Assembly (NCBI RefSeq): GCF_003334765.1
Contig: NZ_QOWT01000004.1
Source of the DNA: Escherichia coli
GTDB taxonomy: Bacteria > Pseudomonadota > Gammaproteobacteria > Enterobacterales > Enterobacteriaceae
DNA: 64,000 bases
Direction: 5' to 3' (one strand)
Position numbers and translations under genes: made by a program. Below the pieces are notes generated by a model, which was given only the letters and a program-made list of their open reading frames with translations, had not been told where the DNA came from and made no database searches. This document shows, piece after piece, positions 52,336-57,600 of this stretch (positions are counted from its first letter, which is position 1; every line of letters begins with the position of its first letter).

Positions 52336-52968
52336 TTATTTCACCAGTTCGGGCCATAAACGCAAAGTCGTTCCGGCAATCTGCATCAGTTTTTCCAGCG
52401 ATGCACCTTCGCGTGCGCTGATCGACATCCCCTGAATAATACAATTAAGGAATTCTGCCAGATGTGTCACGTCACAGTGGGGCGGGATTTCCCCGCGCGC
52501 TTGTCGTTGACATAAAAACTGCTGCAAAGTGCGCTCTTGCATCGCATGGCGTGATTTCAACGTATTGGCGATATCTCCTGAATCTGGGGAGAGGGTGGTG
52601 CAGTTGTTGATCATGAAGCAGCCTGCCGGGGTGTCTTTGCTGGTAAAGCAGTTGGCGATGGCAGCAAAATAGTCAGCCAGCGCAGACTCCACGCTTTTCT
52701 CTTCACAAAACAGCTGTGCTTCATGCTTAGCGGCAAAACGATCGATATAGCGGTCGAGAACGGCACGAAATAACCCCTCTTTGTTGGTAAATTCCGCGTA
52801 TAGCGTGGGCGCTTTGGCTCCGGTCGCTTCGACGAGGTCCGCAAGAGAAGTCGCTTCATAACCGTGTTGCCAGAACAATTTCATGGCCTTATCAAGCGCG
52901 GCATCCCTGTCGAACACTTTTGGGCGGCCACGGCTTTTTTTTACACATTGTGTTGAGTCAGTTGCCAT
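52336..52968 (-). CDS. comR: TetR-family copper-responsive repressor ComR (YcfQ), 210 aa
   Basis: ORF 52336-53046; recognised start at internal Met MATDSTQCVKKSRGRPKVFDRDAALDKAMKLFWQHGYEATSLADLVEATG... (TetR HTH). Confidence 0.88.
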   Translation of the reverse strand: MATDSTQCVKKSRGRPKVFDRDAALDKAMKLFWQHGYEATSLADLVEATGAKAPTLYAEFTNKEGLFRAVLDRYIDRFAAKHEAQLFCEEKSVESALADYFAAIANCFTSKDTPAGCFMINNCTTLSPDSGDIANTLKSRHAMQERTLQQFLCQRQARGEIPPHCDVTHLAEFLNCIIQGMSISAREGASLEKLMQIAGTTLRLWPELVK

Positions 52969-53123
52969 GATGCCGTTGTACCTGGTGACTGTGAATGAAA
53001 GGTTATTATAAAAATAATCACCTCCGTTCACCAGTCCAGATCCCATAAAAATAATTGCTTTCTATTTAACTGAAATTTAAAGATTTTTAAATTAATTAAT
53101 GATTGTTATAAAAAATATCTTGT

Positions 53124-53141
53124 ATGTGATCCAGATCACAT
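53124..53141. promoter_or_regulatory. 18-bp perfect palindrome (CRP-type core) in the comR-bhsA divergent promoter region; candidate operator
   Basis: ATGTGATC-CA-GATCACAT, 8-bp perfect arms; core TGTGA-N6-TCACA equals the CRP consensus; ~68 nt upstream of bhsA ATG. Confidence 0.55.
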
Positions 53142-53208
53142 CTATCATTTAGTTATCGATCGTTAAGTAATTGCTTGCGACGTCATTCATCTGCATAAGG
53201 CCACTATT

Positions 53209-53466
53209 ATGAAAAACGTAAAAACCCTCATCGCTGCGGCGATTTTAAGCTCCATGTCATTTGCCAGCTTTGCGGCTGTCGAAGTTCAGTCAACGCCAGA
53301 AGGCCAACAAAAAGTCGGTACAATCAGTGCTAACGCGGGGACAAATCTGGGATCGCTGGAAGAGCAGCTGGCGCAAAAAGCGGATGAGATGGGCGCAAAA
53401 TCTTTCCGTATTACTTCTGTAACCGGTCCGAATACCCTCCATGGAACAGCAGTAATTTATAAATAA
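53209..53466 (+). CDS. bhsA: Stress-induced outer-membrane protein BhsA (YcfR/ComC, DUF1471), 85 aa
   Basis: ORF-track protein MKNVKTLIAAAILSSMSFASFAAVEVQSTPEGQQKVGTISANAGTNLGSLEEQLAQKADEMGAKSFRITSVTGPNTLHGTAVIYK. Confidence 0.92.
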   Translation: MKNVKTLIAAAILSSMSFASFAAVEVQSTPEGQQKVGTISANAGTNLGSLEEQLAQKADEMGAKSFRITSVTGPNTLHGTAVIYK

Positions 53467-53505
53467 GCATTAACCCTCATTAATGCCTGCTACTGCTGAT
53501 TTTTT

Positions 53506-53538
53506 CCCCGCGACATGCCGTGTCGCGGGGATTTTTTT
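53506..53538 (+). terminator. Rho-independent terminator of bhsA
   Basis: Hairpin CCCCGCGACA-TGCCG-TGTCGCGGGG followed by ATTTTTTT. Confidence 0.8.
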
Positions 53539-54653: not shown

Positions 54654-57600
54654 TTAAGCGATCGCGTTCTCTTCCAGTTCACGCATAAACTGGCGTACCC
54701 ATTCGATACGCGTTTTCCGCTCACTCAAATCCTGAATAAATTTCAGGCGCGTCGGACCATCAAGGCGGTAATGCTGCGGCTGTTTTTGCAGCAAACCAAT
54801 CAACCAGGCCGGATTAACGTGATTCTTCTCGGCAAATTCGATCACCCCGCCTTTCTCATTACCTTCCAGCTTCCTGATCCCCAGTTTCTGCGCTTGCTGG
54901 CGCAGACGGGCAATATCCAGCAGGGTACGCGCCGGATCTGGCAGCAGGCCGAAGCGATCGATAAGCTCGACTTTGATCTCTTCCAGTTCGTTTTCCGTTT
55001 TGGCGCTGGCAATACGTTTGTAGAACGACAGACGCGTGTTCACGTCAGGGATGAAATCATCTGGCAATAGCGACGGCATCCGCAGCTCGACTTCTGTTTG
55101 CTGGCTGGTGAGATCTTCCAGCGACGGCTCGCGTCCGGCTTTCAGTGCATCGACGGCGTTTTCCAGCAACTCCATATACAGCGAGAAACCGATGGTTTCC
55201 ATTGAGCCGCTTTGTTCTTCGCCAAGCAGTTCACCCGCGCCGCGAATCTCCAGATCGTGCGTTGCCAGCGCAAAACCTGCCCCGAGATCTTCCAGCGAGG
55301 CAATTGCTTCAAGACGTTTTTGTGCATCGGTAGTCATCGCTTTTGGATGCGGTGTCAGCAACCATGCATATGCCTGATGATGCGAACGTCCGACGCGACC
55401 GCGTAACTGGTGCAGCTGCGCCAGACCGAAGTGATCCGCGCGTTCAATGATAATAGTGTTGGCTGTCGGGATGTCGATCCCGGTTTCGATAATGGTTGTA
55501 CAAACCAGCACGTTGAAACGTTGATGATGGAAATCATTCATCACCCGTTCCAGTTCGCGCTCGCGCATCTGCCCGTGACCGATGGCGATCCGCGCTTCTG
55601 GCACCAGTTCTGCCAGCCGTTCGGCGGCTTTCTGAATGTTTTCCACATCATTGTAGAGATAATAAACCTGTCCTCCGCGCAAAATTTCACGCAGGATCGC
55701 CTCCCGGACCACCATGCTGTCATACTCACGGACAAAGGTTTTAACTGCCAGACGACGGGCGGGCGGCGTGGCGATAATCGACAGGTCACGCATTCCGCTC
55801 ATTGCCATATTCAGCGTACGTGGGATCGGCGTTGCAGTAAGCGTCAGAATATCCACGTTCGCGCGCATCGCTTTAATGCGCTCTTTATGACGCACCCCGA
55901 AGCGGTGTTCTTCATCGACAATCAGCAGGCCTAAATCTTTAAACTTGACGTCACTTTGCAGCAGTTTGTGCGTACCGATCAGAATATCGATTTTCCCTTC
56001 CGCCACTTCCGCAAGGATTTGCGTCTGCTCTTTGGCGCTGCGGAAACGGGAGATCATTTCGATACGTACCGGCCAGTTGGCGAAACGGTCGCGGAAGTTG
56101 TCGTAATGCTGCTGCGCGAGAAGGGTGGTAGGCACCAGCACCGCCACCTGCTTGTGGTTATCTACTGCCAGGAAAGCTGCGCGCATCGCCACTTCTGTTT
56201 TACCAAAGCCAACATCGCCGCACACCAGACGATCCATTGCCAGCGGCTGACACATGTCGCTAAGTACCGCATTAATGGCCTGCGCCTGATCCGGCGTGGT
56301 TTCAAACGGGAAGCTGTCGCAGAACAACTGATACTGCTCACGATCGTGTTTAAACGCGAAGCCCTCTTTGGCGGCGCGTTGCGCGTAGATATCCAGCAAT
56401 TCCGCCGCCACATCACGCACTTTTTCCGCCGCTTTCTGCCGCGCGCGTGACCACGCATCGCCGCCAAGTTTATGCAGCGGGGCGTTTTCTTCCGCGCCAC
56501 CTGCGTAACGGCTAATCAGATGCAGTGACGACACCGGAACATACAGTTTGGCGTCGTTGGCATAGGTGAGCATCAGATACTCGCCAGTAATGCCACCCGC
56601 TTCCAGCGTGGTCATTCCGGCATAACGACCGACGCCGTGCTCCAGATGGACCACCGGCTGACCAATATGCAGTTCCGCAAGGTTACGGATCAGTGTATCG
56701 GGGTTGATGGTGCGGCGAGAATCCTGACGACGACGGGCAACGCGTTCACCGAGCAGATCGCTTTCGCAAATCAGCGCCAGATTACGCACCGTATCGACAA
56801 AACCATGTTCGGCAGCGCCAATCATCAGATAACGCCCACGGTCGCTGGCTTCATCAAGACGCATAATGCGTTGCGGAGCAATTTTAATTCGTGCGAGCAG
56901 TTCACCCAGCGCTTCACGGCGACCTTCACTTTCTACCGAGAACACCACCGGACCGTCGAAAGTCTCGAGGAACTTACGCAGCGCATCCAGCGGCGCTTTT
57001 TGTTGTGCCTGAACGGCCAGGTCTGGCAGTTTCTGGAAACCTAAATTGGCATTCGCGGCTTTTGTCGGTAAATGTTCAGTTTTTAGCTGCACCCGGGGCC
57101 AGTTTTTCAGCTCTGAGAAGAGCTCGTCCACCCGCAGCCAGAGCGATTGTGGTGGCAACAGCGGGCGCATCGGATCGACGCCGCGATTCTCAAAACGCGC
57201 CAGCGTGTCAGCCTGGAAACGTTCGGCACTGGTTTCCAGATCGCCAGTATTCACGAGCAAGGTATTGGCAGGGAAATAACTGAACAGCGGCGGCAGTGGT
57301 TCGCTGAAGAACAATGGCTGCCAGTACTCGATCCCGGCAGGTAATGTGCCTTTACTCACTTGCTGGTAAATATGTTCTGGATCGCGCTTCACTTCGAAGG
57401 TATCGCGCCACTGGCTGCGGAACAGTTCAATTGCCGCTTTATCGGTCGGAAATTCGTGCGCGGGCAGCAGATTGATCGCTTCTACTTCCTCCAGCGTGCG
57501 CTGGCTGTCGACGTCAAACACCCGCAGGCTGTCGATTTCATCATCAAAGAAATCAAGACGATAAGGCAGCTCACTCCCCATCGGGAAGAGATCCAGCAAC

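Follow-up and report, generated by a model that had tools for sequence, protein, structure and literature searches.

The window analysed here, a stretch of 64,000 nucleotides, represents an Escherichia coli K-12-type chromosome around ndh-ycfJ-comR-bhsA-ldtC, and genome coordinates in MG1655 are obtained by adding 1115864 to the window position. Between the divergently transcribed comR and bhsA lies a spacer of 240 bp that is identical to that of MG1655 and, with ~27% GC, is as AT-rich as an earlier note on this DNA had described it. The genes and elements considered are the following, in window coordinates:

52336-52968, minus strand: comR (ycfQ), encoding a TetR-family repressor of 210 aa
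53005-53010, minus strand: invariant TATAAT in the block CATTATAAAAATAAT, ~125 bp from the CRP box, probably the comR -10
53074-53093: inverted repeat AATTTAAA-GATT-TTTAAATT, perfect (8+4+8), in the same spacer
53096-53109, no strand: candidate auxiliary ComR operator TTAATGATTGTTAT, a degenerate copy upstream of the bhsA -35
53108-53116, plus strand: A-tract ATAAAAAAT, conserved, directly upstream of the -35, with high information content in the 74-species alignment
53119-53125, plus strand: bhsA promoter -35, TTGTAT (53120-53125) in Escherichia, the aligned column reading TTGACG in most other genera
53122-53143, no strand: 22-bp cAMP-CRP binding site centred at 53132.5, assigned from consensus match and published binding
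53124-53141, no strand: palindrome ATGTGATC-CA-GATCACAT (as a whole, ATGTGATCCAGATCACAT), two perfect 8-nt arms around a 2-nt centre
53128-53131 and 53134-53137: two Dam GATC sites within the CRP box, read from the sequence
53143-53148, plus strand: bhsA promoter -10, TATCAT, assigned from column conservation, with a predicted start at ~53155
53153-53166, no strand: candidate main ComR operator, core TTATCGATCGTTAA, within a 28-bp imperfect palindrome at 53146-53173
53209-53466, plus strand: bhsA (ycfR/comC), encoding a DUF1471 outer-membrane stress protein

Upstream of the annotated comR start (52968), a longer reading frame of 236 aa begins at 53046 and overruns the invariant non-coding block that contains the TATAAT, which indicates that the annotated 210-aa start is the real one. 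On the other side of the spacer, the MG1655 annotation places the small RNA BhsB at 53439-53538, overlapping the 3′ end of bhsA and the terminator (stem at 53508-53528); Rfam matches in the BhsB region are sub-threshold only.

The earlier note had singled out 53124-53141 as an unusually perfect 18-bp palindrome and as the only inverted repeat of the spacer. Its position and the perfection of its 8-nt arms stand, since an inverted-repeat search returned arms that are 100% complementary, but the central CA is not self-complementary and 16 of the 18 bases are therefore symmetric. Repeats of this quality are not rare either: 26 with perfect 8-nt arms occur in the window, mostly as terminator stems, against ~8 in simulated sequence. 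Nor is the palindrome alone in the spacer, which also holds the perfect repeat at 53074-53093 and the 28-bp imperfect one at 53146-53173. Other genera do not conserve the 53074-53093 repeat, which probably arose by chance from the base composition. What makes the 53124-53141 palindrome significant is thus its match to the CRP consensus together with its conservation, and not the rarity of repeats with 8-nt arms.

The match itself is as close as had been claimed. The core, TGTGA-TCCAGA-TCACA at 53125-53140, contains both ideal half-sites exactly, separated by six bases, and it is the single exact occurrence of TGTGA-N6-TCACA in the 64-kb window, where 0.06 would be expected by chance. Over 22 bp (53122-53143), 18 positions agree with the CRP consensus AAATGTGATCTAGATCACATTT, the top match of the window. 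The second-best consensus match (57368-57389, 16/22) was set aside as a chance match, lying inside mfd and without both half-sites.

Published binding data coincide with this site. CRP-3xFLAG ChIP-seq in ETEC H10407 grown in M9 fructose gave a high-confidence ycfQ/bhsA peak (Haycocks et al. 2015, PMC4287617, Table 1), and the site extracted from it by MEME, TGTGATCTGGATCACA, is the reverse complement of window positions 53125-53140. Purified CRP likewise binds between ycfQ and bhsA in a K-12 genomic SELEX-chip experiment, at the resolution of the spacer as a whole (Shimada et al. 2011, PMC3105977). Comparison with curated regulation, one of the checks that had been suggested for this locus, agrees as well, as the EcoCyc-annotated Table S2 of PMC5155068 gives CRP-cAMP as the bhsA regulator. 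In the supplement of a CRP ChIP-exo study (Latif 2018), ycfQ is mentioned solely in a table of RNA polymerase profile clusters. It is almost certain, in our assessment, that the palindrome is a CRP site, at which a CRP dimer recognises TGTGA and TCACA as half-sites with six bases between them. ChIP-seq, SELEX and curated databases had already recorded CRP binding at comR/bhsA, and finding the site leaves current understanding unchanged.

For the comparative analysis, 80 loci were fetched with ComR orthologues of 68-97% identity, ranging from Escherichia to Buttiauxella, Cedecea and Siccibacter, and 74 distinct comR-bhsA spacers from 74 species, that of the window included, were aligned. GTGA (53126-53129) and GATCACA (53134-53140) are essentially invariant, TCACA being retained in 69 of the 74 species and GTGA in 72-74. 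More variation is seen at the base that opens the left half-site (46 species with T, 15 with C, 10 with A), and the six bases between the half-sites occur in 25 variants, all ending in GA, so that four central bases drift. Toward the edges, the outer A (53124) is kept in only five of the 74 species and the outer A/T pair is not conserved outside Escherichia; toward the centre, T and C at 53130-53131 vary while their mirror images, G and A, are invariant. Salmonella and Klebsiella spacers follow the same half-site pattern. Because the half-sites are invariant while the outer pair and the centre drift, the conserved unit is a pair of CRP-type half-sites, and the perfect 18-bp palindrome is specific to Escherichia; conservation across Enterobacteriaceae, which the earlier note had recommended examining, extends to GTGA and GATCACA and not to the palindrome as such. 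This is the behaviour of a cAMP-CRP site, whose half-sites persist in orthologous promoters as the centre drifts, and the two arms of 53124-53141 are not conserved as the unit that a ComR operator would form. One feature exceeds this pattern: contacts with CRP would not by themselves account for the degree to which GA, left of TCACA, is conserved. Among 5426 complete E. coli genomes, 5424 contain the 91-bp control region, with an identity of 99% or more in 5023.

The alignment also revises the placement of the palindrome, which had been put near the bhsA -35 and in fact lies between a conserved -35 and a conserved -10. TTGAC stands directly to the left of the box in 67 of the 74 species, with the Escherichia TTGTAT one base further on. 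To the right, at a distance of 1-2 bases, the columns read T (73 of 74), A (74), T (70), any base, A (72) and T (74), that is, TATNAT with a free fourth position. A promoter scan recovered TTGACG-18-TATGAT with 10/12 in Citrobacter and Buttiauxella, and the -35, box and -10 follow the same arrangement in Salmonella enterica and Klebsiella; the E. coli version, TTGTAT-17-TATCAT, scores 8/12 and falls under the scan threshold. Taking the conserved hexamers as the reference, the box sits between elements 17-18 bp apart and, since TTGACG and TATNAT flank it, takes up the stretch between the -35 and the -10 of a strong sigma-70 promoter. Should transcription start near 53155, as predicted, the box would be centred near -22.5. 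The A-tract at 53108-53116 may act as a proximal UP element of this promoter.

The box belongs to bhsA rather than to comR. Four species (L058, L062, L072 and L073) have lost bhsA with its whole promoter, both palindromes included, so that comR abuts ldtC and is left without its known target. The comR-proximal TATAAT block is the only spacer element that these species retain, and from the loss of the box alongside the persistence of the TATAAT we conclude that the CRP box is part of the bhsA module and dispensable for comR expression. As a means of discriminating between the palindromes the same loci proved uninformative, both elements having been lost together.

Occupying almost the whole 17-18 bp spacer, CRP bound at the box would overlap the RNA polymerase footprint and would exclude the polymerase, with less bhsA transcription at high cAMP, on poor carbon sources. 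With a CRP centre at about -22.5, inside that footprint, occlusion and repression are the likeliest effect, and on promoter geometry we lean toward CRP acting on bhsA in this way. A precedent exists in Klebsiella, where the DUF1471 paralogue KP1_4563 is repressed ~6-fold directly by CRP, with a DNase I footprint from -49 to -85 relative to the ATG (PMC5521740); the bhsA box extends from -68 to -85 on the same scale. Promoter activity measurements point, likewise indirectly, in the same direction. Knock-down of comR raises bhsA promoter activity by log2 3.39 in glucose, 1.91 in LB and 1.51 in glycerol, the last not significant (PMC10505187, Data 7), and a derepression that is strongest in glucose and least in glycerol is what would be expected of a second, cAMP-dependent brake. 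The PPTP-seq supplements have no crp-bhsA entry.

Two further DUF1471 genes of E. coli, ybiJ and yahO, have CRP ChIP-seq sites. The ybiJ box occupies -65 to -50 relative to the ATG, which is a class II-like position of the activating kind, and the yahO box -124 to -109. Control by CRP seems to be widespread in the DUF1471 family, with differing architectures; an architecture shared among the paralogues was considered and rejected, the ybiJ box being class II-like and that of yahO far upstream. Analogy with the paralogues points both ways, since the ybiJ box is class II-like while KP1_4563 is repressed by CRP.

For ComR, the comparative data offer candidate binding sites elsewhere. Conservation within the spacer is highest at TATCGATCGTTAA (53154-53166), which 71 of the 74 species share without change. 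It forms the core of a palindrome, TTATCGA/TCGTTAA, directly downstream of the -10, and the candidate main operator defined on it (53153-53166) spans roughly -2 to +12 relative to the predicted bhsA start. The degenerate upstream copy at 53096-53109 reads ATAACGATCGTTAT or TAATGATCATTA in other genera. The CRP box is almost midway between these two ComR-type palindromes, whose centres are 30 bp and 27 bp away. RNA structure in the putative 5′UTR was rejected as an explanation for the invariant downstream block, RNAalifold returning 4 pairs at -0.73 kcal/mol and no compensatory changes, and Rfam gave no above-threshold match in the comR/bhsA spacer.

Distant relatives of ComR carry palindromes of the same kind. 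One of them (L089, 52% identity) is encoded divergently from four tandem genes of 85 aa each (positions 30-1798 of that locus), three of which are DUF1471/BhsA-like. Here TTATCGANCGTTAA, allowing up to two mismatches, has 8 matches at 7 sites where 0.06 would be expected: three of the four promoters have a copy immediately after the -10, and every -35 is preceded by one. An exact CRP core is found only once in this locus, upstream of a promoter and outside the spacers, and a decayed relic of the CRP box, ATGTGATCCAGgTCtaA, is found in one promoter spacer. The other relative (L090, 49% identity; 1715-2000) is divergent from a small AraC-type gene, not a DUF1471 gene, and its promoter consists, in order, of a palindrome, TTGACC, 18 nt, TAGTAT and TTAATGAACGTTAA, with the CRP box absent; the motif has one hit in this locus. 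Judging from these two loci, CGAnCG palindromes go along with ComR-type regulators irrespective of the target gene; the CRP box, unlike what would be expected of a ComR operator, does not accompany the regulator to distant lineages or other targets.

A further indication comes from a review that cites Mermod 2012 and places the ComR site ~60 bp upstream of comC; the left edge of the 28-bp palindrome, at -60 to -63, fits that distance better than does the CRP box at -68 to -85. The asymmetric, CRP-like conservation of the box, the different palindrome family found at ComR relatives and the distance given in the review together leave the earlier note's suggestion of a ComR operator at 53124-53141 unsupported, in the same region where its suggestion of a CRP site is borne out by ChIP-seq and genomic SELEX. 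On comparative sequence grounds, the ComR operators are likely to be the flanking palindromes and not the CRP box. ComR would then bind palindromes of the type TTAYCGAnCGTTAA, mainly that from about -2 to +12 and more weakly that ahead of the -35, and its copper/stress control would be an input separate from CRP. Taken as a whole, the arrangement we consider probable is that of a high-affinity cAMP-CRP site at the palindrome, repressing by occlusion, with ComR bound at the palindromes on either side.

The same CRP site could instead activate, whether in a class II-type position for a bhsA start near 53174, which would place the box centre at -41.5, or as an upstream activator of the comR promoter. 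CRP ChIP-seq sites do lie mostly near -40.5 or -92.5 (PMC4287617), and the box of the ybiJ paralogue is ~40 bp upstream of its likely start. Salmonella RNA-seq, in which ycfR is down 14-fold alongside cyaA and three CRP-activated entries (cdd, udp and deo), would also fit activation; in the same data the Cpx/heat-shock genes cpxP, yebE and rpoH are down as well, and the drop in ycfR could be explained by stress relief. The promoter sequence speaks against activation, however. No acceptable -10 is found at 53161-53169, where GTTAAG, TTAAGT and TAAGTA are without the key A2 or T6 and the stretch is part of the invariant operator-like block, whereas the box has a strong, conserved -35 on one side and a -10 of the same kind on the other. 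For comR a single conserved -10 is seen, ~125 bp away, and it persists in species that have lost the box; in Klebsiella, moreover, CRP represses the paralogue whose box stands equally far from the ATG. Activation is accordingly an unlikely alternative to repression, if one with some claim to attention.

Direct participation of ComR at the palindrome is harder to sustain. In one version ComR would bind there too, competing or cooperating with CRP, and a single stretch of 18 bp would integrate copper and carbon signals. In size, the 8+2+8 layout could plausibly accommodate a TetR-family dimer, the palindrome is inside the promoter that ComR represses, and the invariance of GA beside TCACA goes beyond the needs of CRP; yet neither the outer positions of the arms nor TC on the inner left is conserved, the extended palindrome occurs only in Escherichia, distant ComR-type loci keep CGAnCG palindromes with no CRP-type box in the promoter spacer, and the review puts the ComR site nearer the gene, all of which makes shared use improbable. 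A palindrome that serves ComR only, with a coincidental resemblance to a CRP site, would account for the symmetry and for the position adjoining comR. It is effectively refuted by the ChIP-seq site assignment, CRP occupying the site in vivo and binding the spacer in vitro, and the conservation pattern is that of CRP half-sites while relatives of ComR manage without the box, so that we give this version very little credence. Least credible is a palindrome without function that arose by chance in AT-rich DNA. Perfect repeats with 8-nt arms are no rarity in the window, and the second one of the spacer, at 53074-53093, is not conserved, but an exact CRP core is expected only 0.06 times per window, the half-sites are invariant in 74 species from Escherichia to Buttiauxella and Cedecea, a ChIP-seq peak lies on the site, and the region is present in nearly all complete E. 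coli genomes (5424 of 5426); chance is refuted on these grounds.

Of the two GATC sites within the CRP box, the right-hand one (53134-53137) is invariant in all 74 species. Another GATC, at 53158-53161 in the candidate ComR operator, is also essentially invariant across them. The CRP box and both ComR-type palindromes each carry a conserved GATC, and the spacer has four in all. According to Table S2 of Westphal 2016 (PMC5155068), one bhsA non-coding-region GATC, out of the four in the spacer, changes its methylation with growth phase; it is among 66 time-varying sites and is listed beside mtlA. Calibration of ZK126 to MG1655 coordinates through the yccS site placed no GATC at any predicted position, and an indel between the two strains must therefore lie between the yccS and bhsA sites. 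We may speculate, with little expectation of being right, that a CRP-induced bend helps two ComR dimers to close over the core promoter, or that competition between Dam and CRP/ComR produces heritable cell-to-cell differences in bhsA expression.

What the present analysis adds to the known CRP binding is its promoter context: a CRP box that fills the promoter spacer implies separate, adjacent sites of action for carbon status and the copper/stress signal. Comparative genomics moreover proposes sequences for the ComR operators, which may be of use where stress or copper is sensed with the bhsA/comC promoter, and TTAYCGANCGTTAA can serve as the pattern for a whole-genome scan for further ComR targets.

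Several known systems resemble parts of this arrangement. The promoters cyaA P2 and gal P2 are further examples repressed by CRP through a site overlapping the core promoter, and the bhsA box shares with such promoters its location within the RNA polymerase footprint; the difference is that for bhsA we infer CRP repression from the conserved hexamers. In KP1_4563, the CRP-repressed member of the BhsA family, the CRP footprint takes in the stretch, counted from the ATG, that the bhsA box occupies. At mtlA, a GATC inside a CRP box escapes or changes Dam methylation; the bhsA box likewise contains GATC, two of them, although the scored bhsA-region GATC may be any of the four in the spacer, that of the candidate ComR operator included. 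ComR, itself of the TetR family, has CifR as its best PDB match (E = 5e-32). CifR has a two-site operator arrangement. The operators of TetR-family regulators such as tetO and those of CifR are palindromes of similar size overlapping a divergent promoter, as at comR/bhsA, but it is the TTAYCGAnCGTTAA palindromes and not the 53124-53141 box that follow ComR-type genes across lineages. The closest counterpart of the box itself is the ICAP/consensus CRP site, with which it shares the twofold symmetry, the exact TGTGA-N6-TCACA half-sites, 15 of 16 core positions and 18 of 22 overall, as well as published CRP binding in vivo and in vitro. The two differ in that the bhsA box has C for T at one central base and flanks other than AAA/TTT, and in that its right half is extended, with GATCACA invariant while the mirror-image positions on the left drift.
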